Positions 3,261 to 53,498 of a stretch of DNA of 64,000 nucleotides are shown piece by piece. The position numbers and the translations under genes were made by a program. The stretch lies in assembly GCA_008632985.1 (NCBI GenBank), contig QPGO01000032.1, positions 431,330-495,329 of the forward strand, in the 5' to 3' direction. Numbering within the stretch: position 1 is the stretch's first letter; each line of letters begins with the position of its first letter. Source of the DNA: Psammoneis japonica. Taxonomy: Eukaryota. The notes under the pieces were generated by a model. That model had not been told where the DNA came from, searched no databases, and saw only the letters and a program-made list of their open reading frames with translations.

Positions 3261-3269
3261 ACCAACAAA

Positions 3270-31533: not shown

Positions 31534-34460
31534 ATGAGTGAGCTGGAAGAATTTGAAGAGGAGGAAGAATTTGAAGAGGAGAAAGAATTCTCTGAGGAAG
31601 AAGACTCAGAAGAATGCCCCTCTGAAGAAGAAGACGAGGAATCGTCTGATCGCAACGATGACTCAGAGTCATCGTCCCTACAAGATAGCGAGACTTCAGA
31701 TGAGGACTCCGACGACAACAGCAGAGAGCGTCGAGCGAAGATAAAGGCAGCCAGTCACACTGCCAAGGTTGTTTGCAAAGTTCCATCTGGAGACGAATCA
31801 TCGTCATCTTCGAGTGATGATGACTCCTCGTCTTCAAGCGGCGATTCATCACACTGTGTCATGGGGAGCGGTCCATCGAAGCGAGCAACCAGGCACTCTC
31901 GAAAGAAGTCCCCTCGTTCAAAGCTGTCCTCTAGAAAGCAAAAGAACTCACGGAAAGCCACGAGAACCTCTGTGCCGACCTCACTGATGGTGACACATCC
32001 TCCCACTATTCGGATGAAGAGGACAGCTATGACAGCGACGACGAAGTAGGTTGTGACTACGCCAACGACGAAATCGTCGCTGAAATCATTGATGACATCC
32101 GTCACAAGGACGCTGTTAGCTGGTGTCGCCCATTTCAAGGAGCCTGCTTTGCGAATGCTGGGCAGGCCGGCCATGCGAATCTGCCCGAGTGCGAACTCAA
32201 TGACGAAAATACAAAGGTCACCGTTCCAAGCATGTACGTAAAGGACGTCAAGGCTAGCAACGACCTCACTTTACAAGCTCAAACAACTGAAGGTACCTTT
32301 CATTTTCCAAAGGCAGGGACGAGTTTCACCTTTCCATTGCAAGAAGCAACAGCAAAAGCGAAAGACTGGTTAATCCTCTTCTTCTTTTCCTTTTTCTTTT
32401 CTGTAGATCTCAATGACTTGTCGCAAGTTTCACACCAGGCCGCTGGATTTGACTCCGCTAGTGGAAGACGGATGGCGATCCACCAAGATTGGAAATCGCT
32501 ACTTCATGAGTCTAGAAACGGGCGCCGAAACAGGAGGATACGCTCTTGCCCAAGTTATCAACAAAGACAACGCCAATGAACTGGTCGTTCCTAGAGTCCT
32601 GCTTGAAAGATTCACAGGCTTTGCCACAAGTGTGAATTCGAGGCGAGGGTAAGTCCGTTGCTTCCACCCTGATTGTGTGCTTTCCTAATTGTCAGCCTCA
32701 CCGTCCCTTCTCTTCACTTCTTGTCAGGTATGCAGTGTTTGAAGTTTCTCCTGTCGGCGGTGACTGGTTTGCCCTCTGGAACATTCAGATATTAGGAAGA
32801 GAAGAGGGCGGAACCGCTCCCTTTAAAACCAGTGAGAAGTCCAAGTCAGTCCTATCGATTTCCGGAGGAGGCAAGCGGTACAAGAAAGAGTACGAAACGG
32901 CTCGGCACCTTGGCGTGAGAGGTAGCGGTCGAATGATCAGCGAGTATGAGGCTGAAACCATTCGAGAGGCCGTTAGTGCCAAGGACTACGTTCCAATGAA
33001 GTGGATGGACGGAAAGTTTTCCGAGCAAATTGACGAGCCACGTCTTGAAGTCCCCGGGCTTGAAATATGCCGCACTGCGTATCCAGAGGGTGGCATGCGG
33101 TGGACGGACAAAGTTTGCGCCTTAATGGTGCCAAAGCCCCTGAATGGGCTTACATTTGACCTTCACAGCGTCAAATTTCACAAGGAAGGCCTCACCTGTA
33201 TGGGCCTTAACAAGGCTGAGGACGGCCACCCGGTAGGTGATGGATACAGGACTGCATTGAGTTGTCTCGGTGCAAGCACTCTTGACGTTGCTGCTCCAGA
33301 GTACGTACGGATTGGGGAAGAGTTGCAGAAATCCCTTCGTGACGTCTTTGTTCGTGACGAGGGCAACAACGAGCGTGATGCATTGAGGCTTCACTGTGTC
33401 AAGACGAAGCGCTTTCACCTGGAAAAGATGTCGAGAGGTGATAAAGTACTCAGAACGGCCGGTACCATTGCGGCGGTGACAGCAGTAACTGCTGGTGTGA
33501 TAGCTGGGGCAGCGACAGTTGCGGGAGGCGCTGTAGGTGCCGCTGTTGCCTCTCCAAAGGTACGGAGGTCACACGGCAAGGAAGACGAGAAGGTGAAAGT
33601 CGTGAATGGGTACATCAAGTATCCCGTTTACAAAGTAACTCCCGTCCTTTGTATTGGGCGACGTTGGTACGACCCATTCAAGCTTAAACCTTTGGTCCTG
33701 AAAAGCCATGTGACGCCAAAAGAAGTTCGATACCTTGATATCAGAATTGACAAGCTCACGAAGAAGAAGCGTGGCAGGAAAAGGGCATCCAAAATCAAGA
33801 CGGCTAAAAAGAAACGCCATCCCGCGGAACAGGACGCACATATGCTGCGAATGTCGGAACAGCAGCAAGTTGACGACGACGTACGCAGTGTAGTAAGCAA
33901 ATGCACTACAACGTTTGCGGACGGATCTGTCAAGAAAGAAACTTTCTTTTCGGACGGCACCAAGGTTACTGTACGCACCATGAATGCTCCAGCAGGTGGG
34001 AGCTCGGGATCTAGCAAGAAGAGCTCTGGCAACAGCAAAAAGAGCGGAAGGAAAACTTGCCTTTCTGTTCCTCAAGTGATCTGTGAGGACCACGATGAGT
34101 CAGTCCCTCAAGTAATGGATGCCATGAATGCTGTTCACATTGTCACACCTGAGACATCTCCGAAAAGGAAGAAGAATAAAGTCGGCGGCAGCGTCAAGTT
34201 GAAAGTCAGCAACTTCTGGGATGCGGAATGGCGTCGTCCGCAAGAAGGCACCAAAGGAGAGTCGTCCCTCTTCGATGTCCAAGCCAAGCAAGAGACACGT
34301 CAAAGAGGAGGCAGAATTTGTCGTTGGAGCCTTTGATAGTGACGACTCTGATGAGAATGCCAGCTTCCACCCGCCCGTTCAGGTATCCGGCATGAGCCAC
34401 GGTCAATTTGCTTCGTCGGCTCGCTTTTTGCGAACTGACAGTGGAGACGATCCGTTGTGA
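31534..34460 (+). CDS. Hypothetical protein with acidic/Ser-rich N-terminus and Lys-rich C-terminus, multi-exon
   Basis: EEFEEEEEF/SSSSS tract ORF, likely introns at about 32292-32406 and 32649-32728, then a 553-aa ORF. Frame breaks near 31960 and 34300. No recognised domain. Confidence 0.6.
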
Positions 34461-34759
34461 ATCGCAAATCTGTATGGTTTATCCATGATCCATTTTGAAC
34501 ACTACTACATGTTACGAACGCCATGCATTTTCATTCGCTTTCTTTTAATCGTTGAACCTTGTCGAATTTGGGAAATCGTTGAACCTTGTCGAATTTGGGT
34601 TTTCCTGCATTCCTGCATCCGCATACGGCATGCTTCTGCTGCTAGAATTGACCGTATCTTCGTCGTTTCACATAGATATTATGTGCCCAGTGCTTCTTAC
34701 ACGGGCTCGTTGTTACTAGACCTCGCAGGGAACGACTGATTTGACGATCACATCGTAGC

Positions 34760-36507
34760 TGTCTACTACTATGGTGTAATGCTAAGTAGGCATGCCCTAT
34801 CACTCTTTGGAGTTGGAGTAGTCAGTATAAGCTTTTGAGCACATGCAGCTTACATGCAACGTTATCGCTGGCTCTAAATCGTTACTTGACGTGCTGCCAT
34901 TTGGGATTTGTGACCTGTACTATAGGGAGTGACATACTTCCCGCTTTCTCTTAGAAGTACTAATGCGTTGTTTCGAGAATAACTTTCGTCATAAACAATC
35001 TATGCTACACATCCGATAGATCATCGATAGAACGCTTTGTTCCACTCATTGTTGTTTCACCATGAACGACTTCAGGCTTTTTGGGCGAAGGTGATGATCT
35101 TCGATTGGGCCCCCTTTCAAATATTTCTGGTTTCTGCCTGATAAACTCGTACAGCAAAGAGGTATGACCAAGAACATTGACATCGTGGTTCCGAATACTG
35201 GTTAACGCATAAGGCCAAAGAGCAGCAGGAAAGCCGACTTCGTGGGTGTCGGTACACCAATCCCAATAACCCACCGAGTTTCGGCTGCAGTAGTAATCAA
35301 TGTCGTCGAAGATCGCTTTTTGTTGTGACGTAACGGCAAAGGTGTCTCCGAAGCTTGCATGAACAAGAGTTTTGTTTCTTCCTTCCGCGAGCATATTTCT
35401 GATTCTGGATGTTACGCGCAATCCCCTCACATCCCGGCAGAAACGGATCTCCTTCAACGTAGAGTTACCCTTTAGGCCTTCTGTAATTACAGTGACACCC
35501 TGTCTTGTAATCGACGGGCAATAGCTCAAGTCCAGTTTCTCCAGTGACTTATTGATCAGGAGCATGTCTTTCATGAGAATTGCACCTTCCAAACCAACGT
35601 CGCTGCCCTTCAGCGACAAAGTCTTCAAAGTGCTATTGATGAACATGAGAGATTGCATCATTTCCGCAAATCCTCTCCCTGCTTTACAAGGAAGCTTTAA
35701 ATCGATCAGTGACTTGTTCACCGCGAGAGCCTGAGCAAGGGGACGACACACTTCATCCCCGAACATTGTCTCCGCGATGGGATCATCCATAAGTGCTACA
35801 GAATGCAGTTGCAGAGATTCAAGGCTCTTGTTTTTAGCTAACGCCTCACCAAGTGCCTTTCCATCAGCCACGCCAAGCGAAAAGTCATTCAAGCATAGAA
35901 CTTTCAACGAATGGTTTTTCGACAGCGCAGCGAAGAATTCAACTTTTTTGTTCTCGGCACCTCGTCTGCTTTCCACCGAACCGGGGTACCTTCTCAATTC
36001 GAGTTGTTCCAATGTATGATTAACCACCAATGCTTCTCCAAGTGCACACCAATCTTGGTGCTTGATCAAATAGTTCGACAATGTTAACCTCTTCAAAGTG
36101 TTGTTATCTTTGATTGATGCCCACAACGCCATGAAACTAGGTGCAACACTACGGTAGGTAGAAAACTCCAAGCCCTCCACAATACATGAACTCAACAGCT
36201 GCTCCGTAATCATCTTGACCCCCTCTCCATTGTACCAATAATTTTTAAACCTCAATGTACCTATTTGCTTTGGAACCGGACCTACCTTCAAGGCAGATGC
36301 TACTTCTTCCCATTGTATGTGTGCATGGATGCGAGCAGGTTTGAGACAAATATCCTTGAACTTTCTATTTCTTGCGATGTCACACAGAAACTTCCCCCTG
36401 CCGTCCTCAGACCTTAAGGAAAATTCTGCGCTCATTCTTTTATCTATCTTTATGGATTGGAATCGGAATTACAGCTGATGTGCGTTACTGACTACAGTGC
36501 TGGCCGT
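34760..36507. repeat. Left arm of a ~1.75-kb inverted duplication (partner 53429-55153) containing the LRR gene plus flanks
   Basis: Coding sequence, 3' flank (cactctttggagttggagtag.. / ctactccaactccaaagagtg) and 5' flank (tgcgttactgactacagtgctggccgt / acggccagcactgtagtcagtaacgca) are reverse complements. Confidence 0.92.
35005..36435 (-). CDS. RNI-like (NLRC3-type) leucine-rich-repeat protein, 476 aa
   Basis: Repeated 'L.EAL..N.SL..L.L' units (NNTLKRLTL, NHTLEQLEL, NKSLESLQL, NSTLKTLSL). C-terminal 'ALWP.AL..........LLYEFIR.KP' motif common in diatom LRR proteins. Confidence 0.85.
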   Translation of the reverse strand: MSAEFSLRSEDGRGKFLCDIARNRKFKDICLKPARIHAHIQWEEVASALKVGPVPKQIGTLRFKNYWYNGEGVKMITEQLLSSCIVEGLEFSTYRSVAPSFMALWASIKDNNTLKRLTLSNYLIKHQDWCALGEALVVNHTLEQLELRRYPGSVESRRGAENKKVEFFAALSKNHSLKVLCLNDFSLGVADGKALGEALAKNKSLESLQLHSVALMDDPIAETMFGDEVCRPLAQALAVNKSLIDLKLPCKAGRGFAEMMQSLMFINSTLKTLSLKGSDVGLEGAILMKDMLLINKSLEKLDLSYCPSITRQGVTVITEGLKGNSTLKEIRFCRDVRGLRVTSRIRNMLAEGRNKTLVHASFGDTFAVTSQQKAIFDDIDYYCSRNSVGYWDWCTDTHEVGFPAALWPYALTSIRNHDVNVLGHTSLLYEFIRQKPEIFERGPNRRSSPSPKKPEVVHGETTMSGTKRSIDDLSDV

Positions 36508-36529
36508 GAAGTACAGTGTAGACTATGAT

Positions 36530-37675
36530 AGAGAGATGCTGGTTGAATGTTGAATGTGATTGCGTGATGCATGATGGCACCATGATGCATCAGCAGGAAA
36601 CAGAAGAATCCACGGAATCGCAATCGCACGGAATGTGTGCGCGACTCCGTCCATCAAGAGCAAGACCTCAAAACGGAATGCGAATGACACGGAGCAAAAC
36701 GAAAAAAGCCTCATCAAAATCCGCCTCACATTCCGACTCATGTGCCACATTCCGCACCCAGGATGCAATTTGCACATTCCGTTTCAACATTTCGTTTGTT
36801 AGAAAGAGGCCATTTATTTTACATTCCATGATTTGCCATTCCTTTTGCCACGTTCCGTTTGTGGATTCCTTGTGCTCAATCAAAGACACAGAATGCAATG
36901 GTTTGACTTTCCGCGCTGCGATCAGCGTGTGGCATGCCAGCCACAGCATGTGATGTGGAGTGCACAGCAAAATGAAGTGAAGTTCTAAAATGGGATTGTT
37001 GTGCTGCTGCTTTTCCAGCCATTGAACAACAACTCTCCTGCTCCGCCCGTGCTGGTGCTCTGCCTGCCTTTGCACAACCCCCATCGCTTTGCTGCGCACC
37101 ACTCAGCCGAGTCTCAGAGTGATGTGCTTCTTTTTCTGACAATCTTGGTTGCCCACTGGATGACAAGGGGTGCTTCAACCTTTCCAAAACATGAGCACAA
37201 TGTGACAAATTAAAAAGTGAGCAAACAGGTTCAAGGTTGCAGAAAAAAGCCAAAAAGATGGCACACACGGGCTGTTGATGGGCACGACTGCCCCCACACT
37301 TCTCTGTCACCAGAAAATGGAGCAGCCAGTGATGCGGCGCCACACTCTCAGCTGCAAAGCGGCTGCACTTGGAATCAGAACCCTGTTGAAAATGCACCTC
37401 AACAGCAAAAAGAGAGAAGAAAATGAAAGTGCAAGCGAGCTTTGCTTGAAGTTCCAAGCAAAATCCCACCACAACTTGCCATCAAGCACGCCACAATTGT
37501 CACCCATCAAACCATGCAATCATGTGCTTGCTGCTGCCATTGTTTGTCATTGTTGCTTTGGATCCCACCGCTGTTGTGTTTCTTCATTTTGTGAGAGACG
37601 AGCGGATGAGAAGCAAGAGAAAAAATTGTGTCCAATGCAAATCCTCTAAAAAAACATGCAGCATTTAACGGAGTT
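36530..37675. repeat. TpA-depleted degenerate repeat, left flank of the nested element
   Basis: TA becomes rare from about 36530. Clustered CGGAAT/ATTCCG words at 36610-36870. No assignable ORF. Confidence 0.5.
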
Positions 37676-37950
37676 CGTCTGGTGGGGCAACAATCCGAGA
37701 TGCGAGCCAGCATGGCAAAATTTCCGTCACTGCGGAAAGTCGGATTTGTCCCATGTTGTTAATTTCCTGATGCTGACTCTGCACGCCGGCGTGCAGACAA
37801 CTGATGTTGTGCATTAAACCAAGCCACAATCTCACACGCTTAATGCCTGAGTTGATTTGTGCAACCCAATCTTGTCACCTGCCATGTGGTTTTTTTACCA
37901 TGTGGTTCGTCCCACTTGTTTTCATGTCATTCGTTTTTGCAACACGAACA

Positions 37951-40900
37951 ATGGCGGCCCCCTTCGCCATCGGAAATGATTGCCCCATGTGCGGCAAACG
38001 TTTTCTCCCAGCTGGTCTTTAACACCACCTGAGAGCTTGTCTTCCCTGCAAACTGTCCTTTTCTCAAAGCCTTCACGACGTTTCTTCCCGTCAATCCGAC
38101 CCCGCTCATGGCAAACACCCCCAAACTGGAGAATTGCACGAACAAGTGGATGTTGCCACCTCTTCCACCCCCAGCTCTCCTCCACTTGAATTCATCGCTG
38201 CAGGCCCCAATGCCAACGTGCTTCCAACTCCACAAGGTTGCACCCAGACACAGTCCCCGGCCGTTGCGCTCCAATTGTGCACCTTCACATGTCCCAGAGC
38301 TGCGGGGTTCCCACAACAACTCCGTTCTTCCCCACGTTCTTGACGATGTTTCAGACTGCCAGTTTCCAGACCCCGAAGAATTTGTTTCCCACACCGAGGG
38401 TTCTGCTGCCAATGTTGCAGAATCTGGCCCTTTTTCCACACTCAATCAAGTTGGACACCTCTCCGCGGACGAGGACCTTGTTGTGCCCAAAGCACACAAC
38501 TGCAAAACGACATCCATGGTCCGCATGTTGAATTTGTGCTGCTCCAAGGGTGTCCCAATCAGTCAACAGATGAATTGCTGAGAGACGGGTTCCAGTCCTG
38601 GGTGGGACTTTTTGTGACATTGGGCCCGCAGAATTCTACGTGCGAGCTCCGCAGTAAAATCATTGAGCAATGTGGACACATGAATGATCGCCAACAGAAA
38701 AAGAGGCAATTTTGCGAACGTGTCTCCTCCTCCACACTTGAAGCACATTCTTTGCAGCATGCCCAGGTGTGTTCTTTAGACATTAAAGAATGCACCCAGC
38801 GCATTTTTGTTGACACAAGTGCAGATGACAGAAAGCCTTTGGCTTCGCAAAACAGGCAGTGTGGAACAATTTTTTACAATGGAACACGTAGAAATGTATG
38901 TGCGAAACATGCAACGGGTGACAAAAAATAATCACGTCACAGTTCAGCAGTGCGAGGTCCCACCCAGAGCTGGAACACGTCGAGAACTGTGCAGCAGGAA
39001 TTCTCCAGTGGTGGGTTGTCCATCACTGGACAAATTCCCTCTTCTCGAACTTTCCTGTCCAAGCTCAAGTTGATGTTGCCTGGCGTTGTGCCCCCGGTGC
39101 TGCAGCGCATTCCTCTTGAGTCTGTGTCAATCGTCAACCAATTCAAGAACGACCCGCCTCAGGAGCTCTCTCCCGGCATCCCTGTGCACGACTTTTCCCT
39201 CCAACTGCAGGATCTGTTCGACGATCCCCTTTTTGCCGATCTTTCAAATCTTGATGTTCCTCCCGATTCACGTTGGTCTCAGGTGCTCTCCAGTGAACCC
39301 ATGTTGGACGAGAATGGTGGTTGGAAACTTTGTGACGATGCCGAAATGAAGGACGGTGAAACTTGCAGTGACTGTCATTGTGGCTGCATTTTTCCTGCCG
39401 TCCCCGGTTCCTTTCATGTGTTCGTTTTGCATTGCACCGACAAAACCGGGAAAGGACAGGTCGCACCTCATTCGATGGAGCCATTTGTTTTCTCTGTGAC
39501 TGTCATCAAGTCATGTGCCCACCGTCGTTTTGAAGCATGGCGTCCTCTTGGTTTCGTTCCGAAACACACAGGTTGCAAAACAAAGAATCCTGTTTTCGGG
39601 ATGAACGTCAGAAATTACCACCAAATTTCATCTGTCCTTCTGGCGTCTGTAATTCAAGCGCAAGAATCACCTCCTGTCTGCCGAGTCTGACTGGGCAATC
39701 AGCATTGTCACAAGTGCATTGTTGTCCACAGCGCAACATTGTTGGGCGATGCTGTTAACGCCGCACAAGTGACCGGCCGTGTTTCTGGTTGCGAAAACTC
39801 CCGCCGCATCAGTCATGCCTGTCACACTTCCTGGACCAACAGCAACGAACCTTTACATTGCTGCAGGTGCTTTTCCCAAGAACTGATGGAGCTTTTAACT
39901 GTTGCAGCACTTGGACCACCACCCGGTTCCACCGACAGTCCATGGCATCTTTGTGTCGAATCACAAATCGACACAGTGATGTCTAAGACGAAAGCCAATT
40001 CAATCCGTTCCAAGGCACGCAGTGCAGTCATCCGGTGCGTGAACATTTGTTCCACCACACTTCACAAGGTGTTTGGCCAACACACGGTTGACAATTCATT
40101 CTTTCATCTTCAGATGGGAGACAATCATCAGGGTGTGTTTGGGTTTGCGTCCCCTGATCCAATGCACATGTTCCAAGGCGGCACAGTCCCTCAGATGCTC
40201 TCTGTCATTCTCAATGATTTGCCCGATTCCTCCCAATCCCAACTGAATGATTTGGCAAACCGCACATTTGGATCTCAGTGGTGCAGACCAGGTCAGAGAT
40301 CTAACTTTCCACCGGTTGTCTTGCGAAATGGATTTTGTGCCTTGTCTGGTTTGACCTGCGACCAAAAGATGGGAAAGCTGTTTGCGTTGGCACTGATGGG
40401 TCAGACCAAGGAGGGACGGAGCATGCTCCGTCTTCGTTGCCATCCTGATTTTGACAAGACAAAGAAAAAACGTGCTTCTAATTTCAATGATCAGCCTTCA
40501 GAGTGTGAGTGCAAAGAAGAATGTGAATGCGAAGAAGAAGACAATGATGGTTGTGTGCACGAAGAAGGTGAATCCGTTTCCAACAACCACAACGATTTGC
40601 TTGGTGACGACGATGAGTCCACATGTGATTCAGACAAACGGCAACCAAATCCACAAGATGACGAGGAAGAGAGTGATGAGGAGGAAGTTTCCCCTGGGGA
40701 TCAACCACCGCAGGCCTCAACATCCTCGGTTGACAAGCCTTGCACTGACAAAGAATGCAACCACGATGATCCTGTCCACAACGAACATCTGGAGGATCAA
40801 TGTCGCCATCATGGGCACATGCACATGTGTCCTTGCACGATGCAGCTGACAGCAGCTCAAGCTCACATTTGTCACAACATTGTGTGGATGCAAACAAGAA

Positions 40901-42330
40901 ATGTCAACCCAGATCATCAATTCTGCATCCCAAACCATGCCGATTCCTCCGTCTCTGAGATTTTTACATGCTGTGCGGATCAACGCCAGTCCCTTCACAC
41001 AAAGGCAAATTCTCACGACCCACCGTTTGTTTGTTCAGAAATTGAAAAGGAGTTGCCTCTTGCATTCCGCCAAAGGCTAAACAGCCTGTGCGACGACCTG
41101 GAGCCGGCTTGTTGTTCAGTGGACTGTGACGATGTGGAACACTTGTTGCTGTTGCTCAACAAACTGTTGTTGTTCCACTCCTTCTGCAGCTGCGGTTCTT
41201 CCCTGCACTCATGTGCCAATCGAGCTGACATTGAATGTCGCCTGGTGCTTCTGATGTTCGAGCTGCGCAGCATGATCAATCATGGCGAAGGCACACATGG
41301 ATGGAAAACATCCAAGTTCCACGACCTGCTGCACTTGATCGCCGCTCTTTGTCGGTTGGGTGTGTTTTCTAGATGGGATGCCACCACCGGTGAGTCTGGT
41401 CTAAAGAAATGGGCAAAGCTCCCCAGTCAGACCTGCCAAGCATTGCAAGGCAAAGAAGAGTTCACACGTCAACTTGCAAGCCGACTGTGCGAGCAGAGTC
41501 TTTTGGAGAGAGCCAATGATTTGATTGTCCGTCCACATGCAACTCAGGATTCGTCTGTGGCAGCATCATTTCACCACGACCTTGGTCACGCCATGTTCAT
41601 GGTCAACCGAGTTGAAAAAACATGCTGCGAGTGCACCGGCACCTTGGAAATGAAAAGGGAATGAAGCGCTCATCTGGAGCTGGACGTTGTTGATTTTTTT
41701 TGCCATTGCAGCCAGTGGGGAATCCGGCGCAGGCACGTTGTTGTGCATTCCAAGTCAAATCTACAGGCCGAACACGAGTTGCGCTTTCGGGTGCACCCGA
41801 ATTGCCGCGAGGGTGGGCGATGGCATGACTTTGCATGTGTTGAATGCAGAAATGACGATGGAACCAACAGCTTGTTTCCAATGCAACTGCGTGGTTTCAT
41901 TCTGAGTGACGACGAAAAAGAAGTTGTTGCTTTTGGGAGAACTTGTCTGAAGCAAAGCGCCATGGAAACGAAAATGAGCAAGAACGGTTTGTCCCAGCAT
42001 TGGCAGATGGAGGGCACGTCACCCAAACGCACCTTTGGGTGTTGTCAGAAGAACATGCTCATTGGCGGTGGAATGGGCGTTGCATTGCCCAAGACAGCTC
42101 TTGTTGACCGGGGCAAAAAATGGAAGAAAGGCCAGAAACGGAAAAAAGCTGTTGAAAACAATTTAGAGGAAAGTCAAAATGTGACCAATTTGTCCCTGTC
42201 CGGCTCCATGTCCGATCGAGAGAAGTCTGATGACAAGATTTTGTTTGTCCTCGACATGAAGAATGAGTGGCCGGAGCTTTTTTTAAATGGTGGCTTGTGC
42301 TCGGGAGGCAGGAGTGTGTGTGAAGTTTGA
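37951..42330 (+). pseudogene. Plavaka/CACTA-like DDE transposase, disrupted and Tyr>Cys/His hypermutated
   Basis: N-terminal CxxC..H zinc knuckle. Motifs (HC)TDKTG, MEPFVFS..AWRPLGFVP, DPMHMFQGG, GWKTSKFHDLLH, WDATTGESGLKKWAKLPSQT and FRVHPN(C)REGGRW(H)DFA. Broken into at least 6 ORFs. Confidence 0.8.
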
Positions 42331-42337
42331 CAACACA

Positions 42338-44832
42338 TCACAACAAAGTGAGTCCCCTCACATGATTTTCTGGAATTCTGTCAACATTTTTTTGGTGCAA
42401 TTCCACAAGGTTTGAGTGCGACCACACACTCTCCGGGTCGGTTGTGTGATTGCATTTTGCAACAAAATCCTCCAGTCTGCACCATTTGTTGACTGAGAAA
42501 AATTCGATCCGATGTTTGAATCCGTGTGTCTTGGCAGCAGCAGTGCACAATTCCTTGTGTCTCATCGGCAAAAAGACTGGGCCGTTGTCATGGAGGAAAA
42601 TGAGCTCCTCTTTCAAACCATGTTTCCTTGGATGGTGCAGGTGACACGATGGCTGGTCCATGCACGCCATGGTCACTGACATTTTGTTGTTGCGCATTGG
42701 TCGCCGCGCTGCCTCACATGTCTTCCGTGCCTCATCTAGTTCGATTCCACTGGAATGTTCAACGGGAGAACTCTCTGCCACCATGTCAACCAGGTGCCGA
42801 TAGAATCCGTTTTTATCATCATCACTTAAAGCAGCAAATGTGGCATTCTCAGCTGGACAATCACCAAGGTGGGCACCAGATTGGATGCACAAATTTCCTC
42901 TCGCGCTTCCAAGCTGCACTGCTTTCCTTGTTTTTTCTGGTGTGCCCATTTCCTTGTGTTTTTTCCCGTCCGTCATCAACTGACGAGCCGTTTCCTTTGC
43001 TTCTTCCGTTGAGTTTGGATTGCGCAGCACCCTGTCTTGTTCTTCCAAAAAACTGATGAACAGATGTGGGTGATCTTCTGTTTTGGGTGTCCCATCATGC
43101 AGGCTCTTGTTGACGTTCTGCCACCTGAGATGGGAGGAACAGTGCACCTTGCTGAGGTCACCACCACATTTTGCTTCTTTCACTGATCGCATGATGCACT
43201 TGAACATCTCACCCCTCGGCCCAGTCAAAGACTCGAGTGTTCTCTCCCAAGCTGGCAAGGAGATGGTGGTTGACATGGACCGAACTGGCAGAGGTGTTCC
43301 GTTGCATTCCCTGCAAACCAACCCCTTGCACTCTGCAATGTGTCGGAGATGAACAGCTCCGTCGCAGCACTCACAAAACAGAATCCACAGCCACGCGATG
43401 CACCCGAGCATCATCGTTCGAGTCTTGCCCTCCTTCATCTTGATGCACCTTCCTTTGCTGCAGTCGGACGCGACGTTTGTTTCTGCCAAAGACAGAATCT
43501 TTTCCACAGCCTTGGCTGTTTCTTCCTGGTTGCTGAGTGTGTGCAGGTCAATGGCATCGGAATGTTCCTGCAGTGCTGCAATCAAGGACTCCGCATGAGG
43601 ACAATTGACATTTAACTCAAGCTTCTTCAGTTGGCTGTCAACAATCGACCTTGTGTGCGACAAGTGAGTGAAGCAGCTGTTTCTTGCAGGCACACAATTC
43701 TCCAATGGCTTGTCGACATTTTTTTGGGACAGAAAAACGGACCAGTCCTCAACCAAATGCGAGGCAAGTGCGATGTGATCGTGGTCAATGTCCTTCCCAT
43801 TGCTTGCATCTGAATGCCAAGTCGCTGCTCCAATTGAGGAGGTGTGTGCATGGAACTCTCTTAGAACGGCCCACAGATCGTCTGGGCAGTTCAGCCATCT
43901 TTGACATTTTGAGGCAACCCTTCGTTGGAGGGAGCTTGTCACACCCTGTTGCGATCATTGCATTCCATCCAGCATCCCACAGCAAACGCCATGCACCACC
44001 ATCGCGGAGAGCTGGAGCACCCACCTGCGCAACCTTGGAGATGCGCGGTCGGTTGCTCCCGGTGGGCATCCTGGCATTGCCACTCCCGCACCACAGCTTC
44101 TGCTCCATTTCCCACCAGCTGCATTGATCCCACCGTCCATGGAGCAAAACTTTCTGCATTTGTCTGCTTTTGAAAGGGTGACAAACTCATCACCGAGTCC
44201 AGTGCGTAATCCATCCTCAACGGCACTTGCAGTTTGAGACAAAAGGTCCTCATTTGCAATCTCCGGTGGCAATTGAAGCATTTGAAAAATGGGTTTGCCG
44301 TCTGCAGGAGTGTCAACTCCAGTGACATTGTGCTCATTGACGACGATCGGATCCCTTGGGCGCAACGAGGAATGAGGATGATTGCACGAATTTGGCATCA
44401 CACGAACGTCACCGCCGAGATTCGATGCCAGTTTCTTTGCAGACTCCAATCCAGTCACCGCGAGCCAGTTCACGTGCAAACAGAAATGCACCTGAATCTG
44501 GCATCCATGCTTTTTCTCGACAAACAACAGCTGTCTTTTCCATGAAGTTTTGATCTTTTGCAGATTGGCAAGATTGAAGTCGGGGAACAACTGGGCTTGT
44601 GACTTCTTCTCGTCTGTTGGGAAGAATGAGGTTGTTCCCCAACACTTGTTGTCTTGCCCATTCGGGGTGTCCAGGGGGTTGGCACTGTTTTGCCCAACAA
44701 CTGAAATTTTTTTCCTTGAGAAGGCCGGCCTTGCTGATTTCCCCAGTCTTGCACTTGCTCCTTCTGCCCATGCCCACCGCAGTTTGCATCAATGGCATCT
44801 AAAGCTTCGTCTGGCTTGTGGTCCCGGTCCAC
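42338..44832 (-). pseudogene. Transposon-borne accessory ORF of unknown function (534-aa segment plus upstream fragments)
   Basis: Long ORF 42338..43942 with a single Tyr in 534 aa. Upstream fragments 43955..44590 and 44470..44832 lie on the same strand. Inside the TIRs. Confidence 0.55.
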
Positions 44833-45147
44833 GAGAGACTTGGCATTCCAAGCCTTTCACAGTGGCATCTGACAGCACATGGGACACATTGCACAGCTTT
44901 CTAGATGTTCAAAGGAACATCTTGTGCAAACCTTTCCGTCAACACCATCAACTGCCTGCAACGAGTTTGCAACCTCACAAGCGGCAGTGACGCGGTTGCT
45001 TCTTCATGGAGTGAGAGCGATGCAGTTGATTTTTTCAACGCCATGTGGGTGCAAAACAACCAGTTCGTGTGTTTTGTCTGAGACAAAGTCCTTGATCTAG
45101 AGATCAACAAAATCCAAGAAGTGAGCGACAACCAAAACGAGAAGCCA

Positions 45148-46464
45148 TCACAAAAAATCTAAACAAAACACGCACCTCCGACAATGTTGCTCCACAATCT
45201 TCACAAGAAGGATGAATGCCCACCTGGTTTCTGTTGCGGTGCAGGTGTGCAACTGCAGATGGATGGAACAGAGGCATTTCCTCCAACTGATCATTTCGCA
45301 GGCACCTGGCAATCCACACTCTTTGCCAACCACAGCCCAGTTCTCACAAAGGCAACGGGCCACCGTCGCATCGACAGGCAGAAACACATTGCCAACGTCA
45401 GACAGCTTTTGATGGAAGTGAGTTGACGATTGACTGAAAAACGAATCTGTCAAGATTCTGTCATTGAAGTGAGATTTGAACCCAGTGTCCATCGACATTG
45501 AGCAATGGACACATTCCTTGGAAGCCCAATTTTTGCAACGATTGAGAGCAAGTGCATCGGCGACCATGTGATTTGGATTCGAAGCAACTGTTTGACGGCA
45601 GTCAACAGTGTGGACGTTGAATCCGTTTTTGACTGGTGCCTTGCATGCTGTGGCATCTCTGCACTCCTGGGAGGATGCGTCAGTCGTCCCGTCACCAAAG
45701 ACAAGGCCCACAACCAACATGTCATTGTTGACAACGTCATTCCCGGTGGTGCAGACATTGGGCAAGTCGGATGATTCATCACGACATCCGAAGCAATGGT
45801 TGTCCAACACTGCTTGATCAGCAAATGGTGGCTCGTCGCCTCCAAAGCGGTCCAAGCAAAGTCGAAAGTCTGCTGACATTTCCTTCATTGATTTGACCAA
45901 AAGTCCCTCCACACGGGAACCAACAGAATTGCCACAAACCTTGTCAGCAGGTGCGCTCTTTTCCAGTGAGTCATCGTCTTGCACGCGCTTCCTTTTCCTG
46001 GCAAGAGATTTTCTCCTTGCATCAGCCTGTCTTCGTCGGGTTGTCTGCAGTGACAATTCCTCTGCAACCTCCCTCAATGCAGATGACAGATGTTTGTTGT
46101 TGTGCACCGTCAAACAGTCACACAGCGCTCTTGGCCGGATGGCCAAAGCTTGTCCCATTGGAAGTGTGCCAAGAAATCCATCAGCATCGAGAGTGCGGAA
46201 CAAATGATTGATGCCAGTGGGAGACAGTCCGACAGAAGCTGCCTTCTTGTGTGTCAAGGTCCTCTTGCTGACATGCTGACTGGGTTGGAAATGCACATGT
46301 TGCCTGGAATGTTTGTTGTTTCGGTGATCAAGTCCTGTCAGAATGGGTGGCAGACGACAAATGTGGTGACAGCTGGAATGTGACAACGACATGGCAGGAG
46401 AAAACGGATGTTTGTTGCAGAGTGGGTTGCAACCAAGCAGAAGAAAACAGCAACACAGATGCAA
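45148..46464 (-). pseudogene. Transposon-borne accessory ORF of unknown function (438 aa, Tyr-free)
   Basis: Long ORF with a basic NLS-like tract (RRKSLARKRKR) and an alpha/beta-looking C-terminal half. Inside the TIRs. Confidence 0.45.
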
Positions 46465-48499
46465 AGAGGTTGTGTGACATTGTGAACACGTGGGCGTGTT
46501 CCCGGAGCATCACCTGGGACTGCAAAAAAACATGAAAGAATTGTCCTCAGCAATGAAAATTGAACTGTACAGAATCACTCTCTCACCTGGGTGACAGTGC
46601 GGAAAATTTGGCAAAAAATCAATTCTTTTTTGACGACAGTGTGTCGATTTATGTCCTGATTGTGTGCAATCAAATCAACAAGTTGAAAGACAAACATTGA
46701 AATTTCGTTCTCACTTTCAGCGACACATGACAAACAAATGGCACGACAGAATCCCCGGGCACAGCCCCACATAAAATTTCGATGCAGTGACCCTGCAGAA
46801 TCAAAGCCCCAACTGCCACACATCACAATCCATCAACAGAGAATCGGCGCTTCGATCGAACATGTTGTGTTCCAGTTGCCAACAGCACGACACACTGGGT
46901 GGCCTCGGATGCCTTGCATCGACCAAAGGCATCCTGGAATGTGTGTTTTCTTGCATGAGCTGCAGGATGATGTGGAGATGGCTGTTTGTTCACAAACAGA
47001 TGTTGCCACATGTGCTCAATGCTTTGAGAGAAGCAGCGAAGCAAGACAATGTGTTGAGAATGTGGAGGCGCGACTTTGGTGATCCCAGATGCACTTTGAT
47101 GCGGAAAAACCGGATGAAAAGGCTGTTGCGTGAATTGCGAGAGGTGCACATTGAGGGAGAATTTTGGACGATGAGTTTGCATGAAAGACTGGATGAAAAC
47201 AGAACTCACATCGACCGCAGAGCTTTCAATTGTTGCGTCGCAGTGGGGTGCATGGATGGTGACAGATTCAACCAGTGCAGCTTGCAACCATTTGTGAAAG
47301 GGTGGATGAAAAAGGAAAAGATCCATTGCGACCCGCACATGGACAAAGTGACGTTGACGACAGATTTGGTGGACTTGGACTGGAGACACCGGTGTGCGTT
47401 TCGCAGCAGCTGCCTTGCGCGATTGTGTTGGCTTGCCTCAAAGGAGACAAAGAATGCCACCACCCGTTTGTTGTGTGTGCTCTGCCGCCTGGAAGAGATG
47501 GTGAGGTGAGACTGGGAGGAGAAACCCATGTTAACGTGATTCATCTGGAAGAACATGACAATGGTGACAGAGCCTCCTGGCCGCACGCAGAGGGAACTCG
47601 CCCCCCACTGGTGAGCGGAGACACAGCAGTGCATGAAAAAGCGCTCTTGGGGTTGTGGATGTTCTGCACAGGAGTGCATTCAGCCAGACATGGTCACAAT
47701 GGTGGATTGTGCGAAGTTGTGGAGCGCTTGGGCGAATCGCACAAGACGGCGAGAGAAGAAGAGGCAGTTGACAATGAGGAAAACAGAAGTGTGAGAGCAA
47801 GGCTGGGCGATGGCTGAGGGCAAAGAGATGAGCCTGACAGCCTGGATGGTGCAAAATCAACACAGTGCATGCCACATCATGGAAATGTGCAACGGACCAG
47901 TGAGTTGGGAAATGCCGCAGGTCAAAACGGTGCTCTGTTCTTTGTGGCCGGGCAAGAACAAGATCAGGGCAGCTCAGAGCATGGTGACCAAGACGGCATG
48001 GCGAGGTGTCGCATGCCAGATAAAAAAGCAAAAAGCAGTGTCTGGACTGCAGCCCTTTCTTCTGTGAAAATCTGGACGAAAAAAAAATGGCTGGAGATTT
48101 GAAAATTGTGGCGTGCAACAGTGGGGAGCGCCATTGTTCTTCACGCGGATCATGAAATGCACAGTGAACGGATGATGCAAGGCTGACAATGACAAAACAT
48201 GCCATTCAAAAGGAATGTAAAATTCATCAATTGATGTTTGATGGTGAGTGCTTTGAAAAATTTGGCATGCAACAAAAGGGAGTTTTTAAATGGGGGCCAA
48301 CGGGCATGCTGGCAGGCGCACACTCAGGACTGGGTTGGCACAGAGGGAGGAATTTCATTGACACAAAACACGTTGGAGAGTGGGTGAGCAAACATGTCGG
48401 CACAAAAACGATTCATCAGGTGCGTGCGTTGTGGCATCATTGCACAAACGGGTTGGCAAGCTCATGCATGTCTTGTGACCTTCGTTGCAGTTGGCACCC

Positions 48500-49692
48500 A
48501 TGACACGGCAGAGACAGGATCACACAATGTGGAGGTTGCAGGAATGTCCGTCGTCAGCTCAGAGGCAGCAAGGAGAAAGTTTGTGGACGGCCAGATGACC
48601 AACTGCGTTGCGATGGCTGTGCACCCAAAGACAAAATTTGTGACACACGACGATGTCGAGTTGGCGCTCAGGAGCAAAATGCAGAAAAAGGTTTGCAAAC
48701 ACCTCAACGTGGACGCAAGTGACTCTGCAGTTTGGTGTGAAGCGAGCAAGGAGAAGGTGCGGAAAAGACTTGACAGAAGAAGAAACAACAGGCAGGAGGT
48801 TTTTAGAAAGAAGTTGGTTGGCAAGTGCTGCCAGGGCTGTGCGTGGATGAGATGGGCCAGTGTTCTCACAAATTGATTCTTGCTCAGAAAAAGCTAGATG
48901 CGATGCAATGCCAAGCGTCAAAGACGTCAAAAAGGGCAGGGCGTTGCCTCAAATGCACTTCTGGTTCTTGGAAAATTGCTGCTTCCTGGCAGCAGGAACA
49001 GAGCACTTTAAAACAGCAGACAGCCAAGGTGTCTGCGATTGGCTGACAACAAGCACGGAAGCTTTTGCCAGGCTGATGTGTGACAACTGCTGCGAAACAG
49101 CCGTGTCGGTGGCAGAGATCAAAGAGCAATTCGAACAAGGTCACGTGGCACAGCCACCAAAACAACCCGTGGCCACCAAGCACACTTTCTTGGGGAAAGG
49201 CTCAAAATGAAATCAAGGATGGAACCAGGATGGGATCGACAAGCACAACAAACTCTACAATGCTGTGGCAAAGGAGAGAGCAGATTGCGGCAGAGTCGAT
49301 GCACAGTGCCTGCAGACAAAGAAATCAGAGAGCGCTTGTGGCAAGAAAAGAAAGAAGAAAAAAAGGACAGCATGAGTGGATGGGCTGCTCCAAAAAATGA
49401 TTGGAGCAACAGCAAGGAGGAGGCCGAAGGAAGGAACGATGAGCAAGGGAGCAAAGAGGAAGAAGAAGAGGAAGAGACTCCAGGAGCAGCAGCAACCAAC
49501 AACAGCGCTTCAACACAAACGGGATCTCAACAAGGAGGAGTGAACAACAACACACAGAAGCAACCGAGGGTGCAACGAGGACGCGTGAGGAACGGCGGCG
49601 GCATTTGCCAGTGTGCAGCAGGAAATGATGGTGGCATTGATGTCAACCGGGAAATCCACTCAGTTTGGGAGCTGCAGCAGTGTAGAATGTGA
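48500..49692 (+). pseudogene. CACTA-type accessory (TnpA-like) ORF with one intron
   Basis: W..SKEKVRKRLDRRRNN segment joined by an intron at 48821-48887 to ..TTSTEAFARLMCDN..K(H)T, followed by an acidic tail. Resembles second ORFs of such elements (from memory, not searched). Confidence 0.55.
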
Positions 49693-50040
49693 AAAGCATC
49701 CAAGTGTTGCACTGTAAAATGATGGGAATGTTGTCCATGTGCTTGTTGGATTTAAAGCAGGGTTTGAAAGCAATGTGAATCGGGGGCTGTCACAAAGGCA
49801 AATTGTCGCACGGTGAAAAGTGGACGAGTGTTGCACTTGAAAATGTCGGGAACATTCTCCGCATGGTTGTCACATTTAAATTTTCTTGTGACACATGACA
49901 AAAAAATTTAGATGATGAAGCAAGATTTCTGACACCGCGTGTAAAAAAATTTAAATCAAATTTAAAAAAATTCAGACATGTCGGGCAAGAATGTCACGCG
50001 CGAGTTCGCGCGCAATGTCAGATTGTTGCCCCACCAGACG

Positions 50041-53000
50041 TTTTGCCAGGCATTGTCAAACAAACATCAAACATGACCACAAATGTTTTCCACATCAGTC
50101 ACTCCCAAGGTTTGAACTGTTGCTTAATTTCTTCTTTTAAAAGTTTGTGTTTGAGTGTGTGCCACCTTGCAATGAATGAGACAAACGCAGATTTCAGGGC
50201 TCTCATTCCAGCTCTGTTTGAGGACTTCAACCGTCACTTCTGCATTGTCACGCCAATTGCAACAGAGAATTTGATGCACTGCAAATGCAGAAATGCACAA
50301 ATTGAACAACATTTTTCATGACCAAAAGATGACAGAAAAACTCAAAGGCAATCCCCCCTTGAAACACCCCCGTCCCCCGTTGATCTTGTTGTTGTTGTTG
50401 CTTGAGTCATTGCAGCAAGAGAGAGAGAGATGAATAGAAAGAACTCAAGCAGCAGTGTTGCAAACCATGCAGATGCTCATCACTTCAGCTGCAATGTTCT
50501 CATTCCATGCTGTCTGCTGAATGACACAAAGCACAGTGGCATCACAACACACAGATGACAGAAAATGTGAAAACACGTTGACCTCTGTCCTGTGCACAGA
50601 ATGCAGGCATGTGCAGAAGACACAGGCTTGACATTCTGTGTGGTTGCAACAGAATGCAAAGAGGCATCAACACCTGTCTTGGTGGCAGGAACGGAATGTG
50701 ACCATCCCACCCTGATTGCTGACACTGCAGCGTGGAATGTGAGGGCACATTCCATGGAAAAGTCAAAAACAGAGTGCAAAAAAGGCCTCATTTTCTGCAG
50801 AACAAACAGAACGTGGAAAGAAGCATGCACTCCATGCAATTCCATGCAACTCCATTGGTTCTTGTTTCCTGTGATGTCATGGTGCAGACCATGCCTTTGC
50901 AAGCCATTTGTGCGGGGTGCTTGTGGCATCTGTGCTCATGATTCTGACACACAGACACCCACAACCTGCCCATTCTTGCCACACTTTTCTCATGTTGCCA
51001 GCACTGCCACGCTGCAGACCACAGCCAGGCCTTTTGGACATGGCAGGGCACAGGGGGGGCATCATTTTCCATTGATCGTGCCACGCAGGAGGCTCTGCAT
51101 GACATGCAGCATGCAAGCCAAGTGGCCCAGCAAAAGCCCAATCTGTGAATCGCGAACAATCTGTGTGGTTTTGTGCACAACCCATGTTGAGCACCATGTG
51201 ATGCAAACACCATGCATTGTTTTCATTCGCTTTCCTTTCTTGATGGTTGAACTTTGTCAACTTTGAATTTTCCTGCATTTCTGCATCAAACAGTGTGCTT
51301 CTGCTCCTGGAGTTGACCGCATCTTTGTTGTTTCACACAGACACATGTTGTTTGTTGCTTCTTTAAACAGTCAGGCAATGGACAATGGGCTCACATCATG
51401 TCCATCTGTGTCTCCCCCCTGCCCCCTGCCCTGACCCCAAATGGACCGGAAACAGATGGGCAAGACGAAGTCGGGGTTTGGGGCTTGCCACTTTCAAAAT
51501 CACCAAATTCACAAGGGGATCTTTCACACAAAATGACATCCAATGACTTTCACACACTTTGGAACATCACAAAAGTCACTGTCAACATGAAACATTCCAA
51601 GTTTTGCATTGCCTCAGTCATTTTCTGGTTGGGGCGCCATTGACTCCTGGCCAATCGATTGGCTGTTTCTCCATTTTGAGGTCATTTGTTTTAAAAACAT
51701 TTGAGTGCCAGCTGCACTTGTCTTTCATTTGTTGGTCTGCATCTGCAATTGTGGCATGACACTTTTTTCCATTGAAATGATGGGCACTTGGATTTTGTGC
51801 TTTTTGAGCACATGCTTGCCTTTTGTTCAAACCAGGTGGATCATGCACAAACAATCCAACCCTCTTGTTTGTTTCTGTGCCTGACAAGGACAATTGCATG
51901 GTGCAAGCCCAGATTGTTGCCATCTTGTCAAAAATCATTGTCCGATGATTGCAGTCTTCAGCTGCAATGCCTTGCACAGTCACTTGCAAGAGGAGCCTGA
52001 GAGCCTTCTTGGTGGGTCCCTCTCTTTTGTTGTTGTGTGCTCCTGAAGCAACCAAGGAACCCACTCAATGCCAATGATGTGCCCTTCATTTTCCTTTCTT
52101 CAAGCTTCTTTGTGAGACAAAGTCCTTTCTTGTTGTCCCTCTGGACAGAACCACATGAACCCAGTTGTCTCTGCAGTCAAAGTTGCTGAGAAAACCAGGC
52201 TCACAGTTGTCTCCCCTCCCCCCCTGGAGCTTGTGGTGCAAAGTCATTGTGTTGTTGCACAAAACTGGGAACTGGGTCAGCTGCATTTTTCTGACTGATT
52301 CTTGGAACTCTCTTGCAAATGAAGGCCATTGATTGACAATGCATGACCAAATGTGAGACAAGCCTTTTCCTCATGATGAGATGTGCCCAAAGACAATGAA
52401 CTCAACTTGTGAAACACAGGCTGACCTCACCCAATGACCATCAGTCCAGACTTCATCAACTCAAAATCATCTAAAAAATCATCTTCTGACAGCTCTAATT
52501 TCTCAGAAAAGCCAACAGTGTTGCTGGCCTCCTTCATCTCCACCACGTTCTCATTGAGGCTCATTGTCAGAGAGGGTGACAACCGCAAGAAAGCTTGAGA
52601 AGTGGGTCTGCATGCCTGTCAATTTGTCTCCAGCTTGCTTGATGTGAGCATCTGGACAAGCTGCCAACAAAATGTCATTGGACATCTGATCTTGAAAATC
52701 CACATGTTTGCACCTGGTGTTTTGCTTTTTTCCATTTGAGGAGATTGTTTGAGGTTGCTTGCTCGGAGCAGGACAAGGCCAAGGCCAAGGCCAATGTGCT
52801 GTTGAGGGGGGGGGGGGGGGGNNNNNNNNNNNNNNNNNNNNNNNNNNNNNNNNNNNNNNNNNNNNNNNNNNNNNNNNNNNNNNNNNNNNNNNNNNNNNNN
52901 NNNNNNNNNNNNNNNNNCAATGGCGCAGCAGGCTGTGTTGCTTGGGATGTCACTTTCCAGTGTCACCAGGCCCAGATGCAACCGTGCGCTTGTTGATTTC

Positions 53001-53190
53001 CTTCACATCATCTGCAGCCAACTTTTGAGTTGTTCAAAAGCATGAAAGAATCTCACCCACTGGATCATCTTTAAATCAGTGGTTTCCTCTGAGTTTGATG
53101 AAGCAGTTCAGCCATTCTTGACAGCTTGATGCCAGCCATTGTTCAAAGTCTTTGCGGACAAACAGCAGATGATGATGGATGCTCTTTTCG
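50041..53190. repeat. Degenerate repeat depleted of TpA and CpG, right flank of the nested element
   Basis: About 8 TA in about 3.1 kb, nearly all TTAA/CTAA. CG is sparse and TG/CA is very high. Confidence 0.6.
52822..52917. other. Assembly gap (96 N) preceded by a poly-G run
   Basis: Run of N in the sequence. Confidence 0.99.
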
Positions 53191-53498
53191 ATTAGTGGCA
53201 TAGAGTGTTTTATCTTAAATGTACATGTTCATGAAGGCAATGAGACACAGCCGTTCAGCGAAGCGTCCAGTGCGTCGTCTCGTTGTTCGTCGTGGTGTCT
53301 TGTTGGTCCTGTGAGTCGTCACCCATGAAGAGCGATCATTGCGGTGGCGCGCTAAACGTTATTTTCGGGGGCGGCAGTCAGTGCGGCACATAGCCATACT
53401 CCAATACATGCATCCCTTGTTACTTGTTACGGCCAGCACTGTAGTCAGTAACGCACACCAGTTGCAGTTCCGATTCCAACCCATAAAGAAAGAATAGC

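Follow-up and report, generated by a model that had tools for sequence, protein, structure and literature searches.

What has removed almost every TpA step from transposon-derived DNA in a diatom genome, and why have a few TpA sites been left in place? This question is raised by a window (the whole stretch of 64,000 nucleotides that was analysed) from Psammoneis japonica, GenBank assembly GCA_008632985.1, contig QPGO01000032.1, positions 431,330 to 495,329 of the forward strand. All coordinates given below count from the first letter of the window. The largest TpA-depleted block, at 36700-53190, contains what appear to be the remains of a DNA transposon, and an initial annotation of part of it, at 37800-45200, had proposed that the surviving TpA sites reveal the target of a mutator. 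We find that TpA has been changed to TpG and CpA, that a site's chance of survival depends on the two bases that follow the A in either strand and that the two strands contribute independently. The interval has probably been worked over by a TpA-specific mutator acting at the DNA level with flank-dependent and strand-independent rates, beside CpG decay.

TpA depletion and its direction

Dinucleotide counts per kilobase and counts in 250-bp steps delimit four blocks that are nearly free of TpA: 1-1000 with 1 TpA, ~1633-3480 with 5, ~8500-10300 with 3 and ~36700-53190 with 73. The last of these encloses 37800-45200, which holds 38. TA occurs 1-10 times per kb in the blocks (odds ratio 0.01-0.16) compared to 20-65 times per kb elsewhere, and across 37001-53000 the odds ratio is 0.02-0.16. 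CA/TG odds are raised to 1.4-2.1 in the depleted blocks. The block boundaries are sharp, and host genes, among them the asparaginase frame at 28351-29199, show normal TA.

As a proxy for the ancestral state we use the non-depleted remainder of the window, referred to as host DNA, and not a consensus of the element. The strand-symmetric density ratio of depleted DNA to the rest is 0.10 for TA, 0.52 for CG, 1.45 for CA/TG and 1.05 for AA/TT, and all remaining dinucleotides lie between 0.91 and 1.18, with GA/TC at 0.91. With this proxy, the estimated loss of 750.6 TA and 558.5 CG adds up to 1309, and the gain of CA/TG amounts to 1353. Since loss and gain roughly balance, transitions at TA and CG explain essentially the whole change. 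The conversion of CG to TG/CA is methyl-CpG decay, a second and ordinary process on the same DNA. CpG odds range from 0.13 to 0.79 over the whole large block, with a moderate fall to 0.53-0.79 in 37-50 kb, and drop to 0.09-0.29 in 1-1000, 2001-3000, 9001-10000 and 50001-53000, whereas TA loss is near-complete in all depleted blocks. The two processes are thus not coupled one to one. The depleted blocks may differ in age or in methylation.

The direction of change is seen in one sequence that is present in two states, with normal TA at 34456-34676 (+) and depleted at 51144-51341 (+). This is the single usable depleted/undepleted pair, ~200 bp long, from a comparison of the window with itself in plain and in purine/pyrimidine-coded form; in that comparison the depleted blocks are not recognisable as copies of one another. 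None of the 11 TA in the well-aligned core of the undepleted copy is kept in the depleted copy, where 4 have become TG, 4 CA and 3 are gap-adjacent or otherwise changed. Three of the 10 CG are kept and 6 read CA or TG. The reverse case, with TG or CA at 34456-34676 opposite a TA of the depleted copy, does not occur. The change runs from TA to TG/CA. In the fossil transposase frame of the large block (38932-42330, +), a single Tyr is found in 1133 codons compared to a median of 2.74% in the homologue family, and His (56) and Cys (63) are in excess. TAY codons have been turned into CAY or TGY.

Surviving TpA sites

Surviving TpA were sorted by their flanking bases into YTAR, mixed (YTAY or RTAR) and RTAY sites. 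The survivor counts of the initial annotation are reproduced exactly in all four intervals that it covered: 23 YTAR, 14 mixed and 1 RTAY in 37800-45200, 4, 1 and 0 in 1633-3480, 2, 0 and 0 in 8620-10300, and 7, 1 and 0 among the 8 TpA of 50041-53190. The whole large block contains 46, 25 and 2. The annotation had judged these counts against a naive expectation of 1:2:1. This expectation is wrong, although conservative, as the 1696 TpA of the non-depleted DNA divide into 291 YTAR, 902 mixed and 503 RTAY. Since normal DNA contains fewer YTAR than mixed or RTAY sites, the real enrichment exceeds the one calculated against 1:2:1. For 37800-45200 the skew has p=7.9e-7 against 1:2:1 and p=1.5e-11 against host. 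The remaining depleted blocks provide an independent replicate (30/13/1, p=2.9e-17 against host), and all 82 survivors together (53/27/2) give p=2.8e-26 against host. Two halves of the host DNA show no significant difference in class (p=0.06).

When host counts are scaled to the depleted length, estimated survival is 0.369 for YTAR, 0.061 for mixed and 0.008 for RTAY sites, in line with the proposal that TAY is lost faster than TAR. Each TpA can be read as two half-sites, one per strand, each defined by the bases that follow its A. Expressed as -ln, survival in the three classes is 1.00, 2.80 and 4.82. A model with two independent strands predicts (1.00+4.82)/2 = 2.91 for mixed sites, close to the observed 2.80. 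When survivor and host sites are compared by logistic regression, the number of TAY half-sites has a strong effect (likelihood ratio test, LRT, 98.6, p=3e-23), and the strand-by-strand interaction is null, with p=0.79, or 0.69 in a model that includes +1 and +2. Because -ln survival is additive and no interaction between the strands is seen, the suggested 'squared' relation, in which the survival of RTAY follows from that of mixed sites by squaring relative to YTAR, holds in the depleted DNA of the window with host DNA as proxy. The annotation had explained the ranking by two chances of attack at RTAY, one at mixed sites and none at YTAR. Order and strand independence stand, but YTAR is not exempt, as ~63% of the expected YTAR sites are lost.

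All ten strand-symmetric classes rank as expected. The ratio of survivors to host falls from 0.32 for TTAA, 0.16 for CTAA/TTAG and 0.085 for CTAG through 0.058 for GTAA/TTAC, 0.025 for ATAA/TTAT, 0.020 for CTAC/GTAG and 0.016 for ATAG/CTAT to 0.007 for GTAC, 0.004 for ATAC/GTAT and 0 for ATAT. For half-sites, the survivor/host ratio at +1 is 2.47 for A, 1.20 for G, 0.43 for C and 0.23 for T (p=2e-24), and at +2 it is 2.61 for A, 0.33 for G, 0.51 for C and 0.41 for T (p=3e-30). The effect of +3 is weak (p=0.001), and +4 and +5 have none. Among tetranucleotides, TAAA (5.1x), TAGA (3.3x), TAAC (1.8x) and TAAT (1.2x) are high, and TAGC (0.33), TAGT (0.12) and TAGG (0 of 120-scaled) are low. The TAC series runs from TACA with 1.04 through TACG with 0.27 and TACC with 0.18 to TACT with 0.08.

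The base at +2 is as strong as the one at +1, and A at +2 protects. Adding the +2 term improves the model with an LRT of 81.7 (3 df, p=1.3e-17), and the odds ratio of the +2 effect is 3.4 where +1 is A, 8.9 where it is C and 17.3 where it is G. Fitted survival factors are 1, 0.42, 0.17 and 0.12 for A, G, C and T at +1, and 1, 0.25, 0.22 and 0.16 for A, C, T and G at +2. The definition of the target by TAY versus TAR therefore captures the core of the rule, but it is too coarse at +1, where four letters fit better than R/Y (p=2e-4) with survival in the order A > G > C > T, and it overlooks +2. The spared site is T-Y-T-A-R-A (e.g. TTTAAA, TCTAGA), which is more than plain YTAR. In the pair that is present in two states, six sites scored by hand are informative, and five of them behave as the half-site factors predict.

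The skew shows a dose-response with the depth of depletion. TA density decreases from 19.1 per kb in a 418-bp insertion at 38564-38981 to 5.1 in 37800-45200, 4.5 in the rest of 36.7-50 kb, 2.5 in 50-53 kb and 1.9 in the small blocks. In the same order, the share of survivors with a purine at +1 is 0.56, 0.79, 0.78, 0.94 and 0.89, with 0.44 in host, and the share of TARA half-sites is 0.44, 0.53, 0.63, 0.75 and 0.67, with 0.14 in host.

Products on the two strands

A faster loss at TAY half-sites predicts that mixed sites end mostly as YTGY (=RCAR) and not as RTGR (=YCAY). After subtraction of the host expectation and of half of the CpG loss, the net gain of YTGY versus RTGR is 375 versus 94 in all depleted blocks and 228 versus 73 in 36700-50040. 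The products thus carry the bias expected from the faster loss of TAY. Over all depleted blocks, each TA lost corresponds to a net gain of 0.87 TG when C stands at +1, of 0.62 with T, 0.41 with G and -0.14 with A. Density ratios reach 1.5-1.7 for TGTC, TGGC, TGCC, TGGG and TGTT, whereas TGAA stays at 0.96 and TGGA at 1.15; TGA is not in excess. TG and CA counts in the three fossil frames of the large block, one on the plus and two on the minus strand, are 338/304, 242/239 and 141/146. These near-equal counts, whatever the orientation of the frame, indicate that there is no transcription-strand asymmetry and that both strands were mutated.

Proposed mechanism

We propose that a mutator acting at the DNA level would attack the TpA step only and produce A:T to G:C transitions, so that mutation of one strand would give TG and mutation of the other CA, while ordinary CpG decay would proceed in parallel. 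Its rate would be set by the two bases beside the mutated pair, with a predicted target T-A-N1-N2 in which N1 is T~C > G > A and N2 is not A. The strands would be attacked independently, survival being the product of two half-site factors, and near-saturation would leave the slowest class, TA-R-A on both strands. Foreign or repeated DNA appears to be its target. The simplest chemical reading is deamination of adenine to inosine, which is read as G, and the candidate agent would be a polynucleotide deaminase working on transiently single-stranded or flipped-out DNA. No deaminase domain is found among the long open reading frames (ORFs) of the window.

The closest known case is the chlorarachniophyte Bigelowiella natans. 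In two regions of integrated viral DNA, 230 of 231 de novo mutations in mutation-accumulation lines consist of A>G or T>C, every one of them at TpA and in some lines only (Mettrop et al., bioRxiv 10.64898/2026.01.13.699255, 2026). According to the main text of this preprint, the mutation rate in some lines is ~1000-fold above background, the genome holds 124 TpA-poor, CpA+TpG-rich clusters, the TpA-poor genes are enriched in DDE transposase and reverse-transcriptase domains, and adenine deamination is proposed with ADAT2/3 homologues as candidate enzymes. As far as that text goes, both systems share that TpA alone is affected, that it changes to TpG/CpA on both strands and that the effect is confined to foreign or transposon-like blocks. 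The regional character is also found here, with sharp edges, a transposase fossil, repeat contigs and normal neighbouring genes. The two differ in that the host here is a diatom, a stramenopile, and in the depth of depletion, with TA odds of 0.02-0.16 compared to 0.45 given for the Bigelowiella region of nucleocytoplasmic large DNA virus (NCLDV) origin. Rates in Bigelowiella were measured in mutation-accumulation lines, whereas the diatom process is known here from sequence alone. By analogy, the process in the diatom would be of the same kind.

Several points weigh against this reading. The context signal is carried by just 82 survivors, some of which may have arisen anew through ordinary G>A or C>T changes, and the true ancestor may have differed somewhat from the host proxy in its NTAN make-up. 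The raw asymmetry of the products is modest. Its odds ratio is 1.19 (p=0.0017) for all depleted blocks together and 1.22 (p=0.0011) when 37800-45200 is left out, and within that interval alone the asymmetry is not significant (odds ratio 1.12, p=0.18). One of the six informative sites of the two-state pair is contrary, since TAGA changed there rather than the TAGC of the partner strand. A 1.8-kb inverted duplicate beside the large block is undepleted. Finally, the tRNA substrates of eukaryotic ADAT2/3 mostly have a purine after A34, from which no TAY preference would be predicted.

Alternative explanations

TA is self-complementary, and the sequence is therefore compatible with deamination of A in T-A-N-N or with modification of T in N-N-T-A. 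TA>TG is T>C on the opposite strand, and the sequence results fit attack on A and on T alike. With the same flank rule, TET/JBP-type enzymes could oxidise the T of TpA to 5-hydroxymethyluracil (5hmU) or 5-formyluracil, which would mispair with G; R-T-A would then be favoured and T-Y-T-A spared. Dinoflagellates provide a precedent for base modification directed at transposons in an alga with a bias to T in TA. In these algae, TET/JBP enzymes produce 5hmU, which is concentrated on transposable elements and has a silencing effect there, and earlier work cited in the same article reports that replacement of thymine is preferred in the dinucleotides TA and TC (PMC11572971). TC is not visibly affected in our window, with a GA/TC ratio of 0.91, and dinoflagellate 5hmU is an epigenetic mark that is not known to be mutagenic or to occur in diatoms. 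This reading also assumes that oxidised thymine leads to clean and efficient T>C. Overall, we regard oxidation of thymine as unlikely, though it is the chief chemical alternative to deamination of adenine.

The excess of YTAR and TARA could also be inherited from an ancestor rich in TTAA/TTTAAA-type sites, or could be secondary, caused by later mutation or by selection on stop codons or signals. The ancestor is estimated from host DNA, TAA and TAG are stop codons, and survivors form local clusters, with 8 in 49753-50138 and 8 in the 418-bp insertion. The skew persists, however, when the insertion and the cluster at 49700-50140 are both dropped (44/20/1, p=4.9e-24). Flanks of GA and AA cores serve as a control; their depleted/host ratios are 0.86-1.12 fold, so that the survivor skew is no effect of composition and the blocks are not merely rich in A-tracts. 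TA arising from the local CA/TG pool would be ~21% YTAR according to NTGN counts and not 65%, and regenerated TA would last only where the forward rate is low, which amounts to the same conclusion on flanks. The bias of the products is complementary to that of the survivors, and the skew rises with the depth of depletion. Selection for stop codons is unlikely because the frames are dead, with internal stops and Tyr nearly gone. Taken with this evidence, an inherited or secondary origin is very unlikely.

Editing of transposon transcripts by ADAR- or ADAT-like enzymes, fixed by reverse transcription, would likewise read as A to G, and A-to-G clusters are known in animal retroelements. ADAR favours a 5' U, as adenine is attacked here 3' of T, but the preferred ADAR context is 5'-UAG (Table 1, PMC10661471), whereas TAG followed by A is among the contexts spared here (TAGA 3.3x). 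ADAR also acts on double-stranded RNA, and we are dealing with the fossil of a DNA transposon with symmetric TG/CA products. TG and CA gains are equal whatever the orientation of the gene, non-coding parts are depleted to an equal degree, and no reverse transcriptase is found by Pfam among 97 open frames of the depleted blocks. RNA editing is thus highly improbable.

An artefact of sequencing or assembly, for instance consistent miscalling of modified DNA, might be considered in view of the 96-N gap in the window, yet we give it hardly any weight, as the block edges are sharp, the loss of Tyr with gain of His and Cys and the balance of TA and CG against CA/TG fit real mutation, and k-mer contigs from a sequencing run, which may be the assembly's own source and would then not be independent, reproduce depleted stretches with zero differences at a normal depth of ~60 (36058-36716, 36792-37704, 50014-51481 and 53240-53876). 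A general WA signature of polymerase eta, already disfavoured in the initial annotation, is contradicted by the AA/TT ratio of 1.05 compared to 0.10 for TA.

Relation to known systems

Repeat-induced point mutation (RIP) of ascomycete fungi resembles the process described here in that dinucleotide-specific transitions on both strands ruin transposon copies and leave a regional signature. In RIP, CpA is changed to TpA, which enriches TA and acts on C:G, whereas here TA is destroyed, CA/TG is enriched and A:T is affected. Fungal RIP itself does not fit, the sign being opposite in every depleted block and the host not being a fungus. With regard to duplication, the trigger of RIP, the large block is high-copy, yet the adjacent 1.8-kb inverted duplicate keeps normal TA. 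Duplication alone is therefore probably not the trigger.

The enzymes TadA and ADAT2-ADAT3, together with editors derived from TadA, share with the proposed deaminase the conversion of A to I, the need for T/U 5' of the target and a preference for C at +1. They differ in that T at +1 is at least equal to C here, in that +2 is not-A rather than G, and in that the natural substrate of TadA is a tRNA loop. The loop preference of TadA is U-A-C-G, which fits our rule at -1, partly at +1 and not at +2, and early TadA editors prefer YAC. The target of TadA/ADAT2 is listed as 5'-ACG (Table 1, PMC10661471).

The 2026 preprint on Bigelowiella is the only known account of a natural process that converts A:T to G:C at a single dinucleotide and in selected parts of a genome. 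The window appears to represent a second instance of this very recently described kind of hypermutation, in a different algal lineage and in a DNA transposon. It adds a near-saturated signature in diatom transposon fossils, a quantitative rule for the +1 and +2 bases and evidence that each strand is attacked independently of the other. In the main text of the Bigelowiella preprint the words 'context', 'flank', 'trinucleotide' and 'logo' are absent and no flank rule is stated, while its figures and supplements may bear on one; the +1/+2 rule and the test of strand independence appear to be new. A report of TpA hypermutation in diatoms was not found in the literature searched, which does not cover all publications. 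The flank rule is a biochemical fingerprint that can be checked against the published de novo mutations and used to screen deaminases and thymine oxidases on oligonucleotides. It is quite possible, at somewhat less than even odds, that diatoms share with a chlorarachniophyte a DNA-level, TpA-specific 'reverse RIP', a widespread defence of SAR-clade algae against transposons and integrated viruses, whose enzyme reads T-A-[T/C>G>A]-[not A] on each strand independently. If so, the fingerprint would let the enzyme be identified, and a natural A:T>G:C editor of double-stranded genomes would be at hand.

Probable transposon fossils of the large block

The frame at 38932-42330 (+) comprises 1133 codons in one reading frame, interrupted by two internal TGA stops at 39688-39690 and 41662-41664, and resembles a gene for a Plavaka-like (CACTA-type) DNA transposase. 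A search with its 657-aa core gives 621 homologues at E<=1e-3, most of them 1200-1400 aa long, and the best has E=2.5e-90. Among the best 150 of the 621, the median composition is 2.74% Tyr, 3.2% His and 2.1% Cys, and only 1 of the 150 has less than 0.5% Tyr. One of these best 150, P0149, has zero Tyr in 382 aa and may be the predicted product of a further hypermutated copy. The homologues have no strong Pfam domain; one of eight tested, P0014, gives a sub-threshold match to Plavaka (PF18759). Neighbours in a protein atlas are Plavaka and Transposase_21 clusters with a score of 0.92, which is a lead and not a proof. These similarities suggest that the interval is transposon-derived DNA with a dead gene for a Plavaka-like DNA transposase. 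In a BLAST-based comparison only 4 columns have Tyr in at least 30% of the homologues, and the fossil carries Q, F, C and C there, too few columns to be used.

A second fossil frame at 42338-44788 (-) spans 817 codons with one internal TGA, 1 Tyr, 41 His and 36 Cys, and matches no Pfam family. A 538-aa frame on the minus strand within it has no homologue at E<=0.001 among proteins of 295-942 aa. The third long frame, at 45151-46509 (-), is free of Tyr over 453 aa and also has no Pfam family. Of the 97 stop-to-stop frames of at least 90 aa in the depleted blocks, none reaches a Pfam curated cut-off and three give chance-level matches. A>G and T>C changes never make stops and erase TAA and TAG, so that long frames in the blocks are fossils and not a sign of function. 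Depleted blocks thus mimic long ORFs, and their Tyr-free pseudo-proteins pollute protein databases.

The large block, the only one examined in this respect, is a high-copy repeat family. From the sequencing run, 6105 contigs match 36000-54000 at a likeness of at least 80%, of which 1033 are at least 99% alike, 1332 fall at 95-99%, 2155 at 90-95% and 1585 below 90%. Their summed depth is 450-2400 over most of the block compared to ~55-70 at the single-copy edges. Other copies differ from the window mainly by transitions in both directions, with 447 A>G, 481 T>C, 600 G>A and 619 C>T, with 77-114 for each transversion. In one example among 40 of 2914 differing places, TG at 37125-37126 of the window faces CA in another copy.

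The 418-bp insertion at 38564-38981 lies within the fossil transposase region and is not in other copies of the element, as two contigs join 38563 to 38982 and skip it. The bin 38404-39004 has a depth of 89318 compared to ~60 for single-copy DNA, which makes the insertion a probable short (MITE-like) element of very high abundance. This younger insertion is less mutated, with 8 TpA (19 per kb) in contexts nearer to host (2 YTAR, 5 mixed and 1 RTAY), and it contains the sole RTAY of 37800-45200. Neither a protein-guided scan nor a search for an exact 22-base stretch of the insertion yields relatives in metagenome contigs.

The large block is flanked by a 1.8-kb inverted repeat, 34734-36507 and 55182-53429, at a distance of 200-240 bp from each edge. 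Its arms are 92% identical overall and 98-100% in the core at 35069-36069, and their TA density is normal. The 109 mismatches are a generic mix that is not dominated by TA changes. A 476-aa frame without Pfam family lies in it at 35005-36435 (-), and in the right-hand copy this is split into two frames. The repeat is either part of one large element whose ends escaped the mutator or two younger insertions.

Other features of the window

Within the large block, 47001-50000 has a plus-strand GC skew of +0.20 to +0.24 and an AT skew of +0.16 to +0.33, unlike its neighbours. An A-rich stretch at 49753-50138 with eight surviving TTTAAA-type sites adjoins the boundary at 50041, and the assembly gap of 96 N is located at 52822-52917. 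Short tandem duplications at 2198-2297/2320-2419, in a depleted block, and at 12456-12531/12537-12612 are visible only in the purine/pyrimidine-coded self-comparison, with 92% identity in that coding.

A 430-aa frame at 26105-27397 (-) contains aspartyl protease domains of retroviral type (Asp_protease_2, gag-asp_proteas), in DNA whose TA content is normal or high. Should this be the remnant of a retroelement, some mobile elements of the genome have escaped mutation. Long ORFs outside the depleted blocks match ordinary eukaryotic families, namely a subtilase with PA domain, an asparaginase, a 2OG-Fe(II) oxygenase/OGFOD2-like protein, DUF4460 and Duc1. The nearest named relatives of the asparaginase are diatom proteins, with Chaetoceros tenuissimus at 86% identity followed by Odontella, Cylindrotheca, Cyclotella and Thalassiosira.

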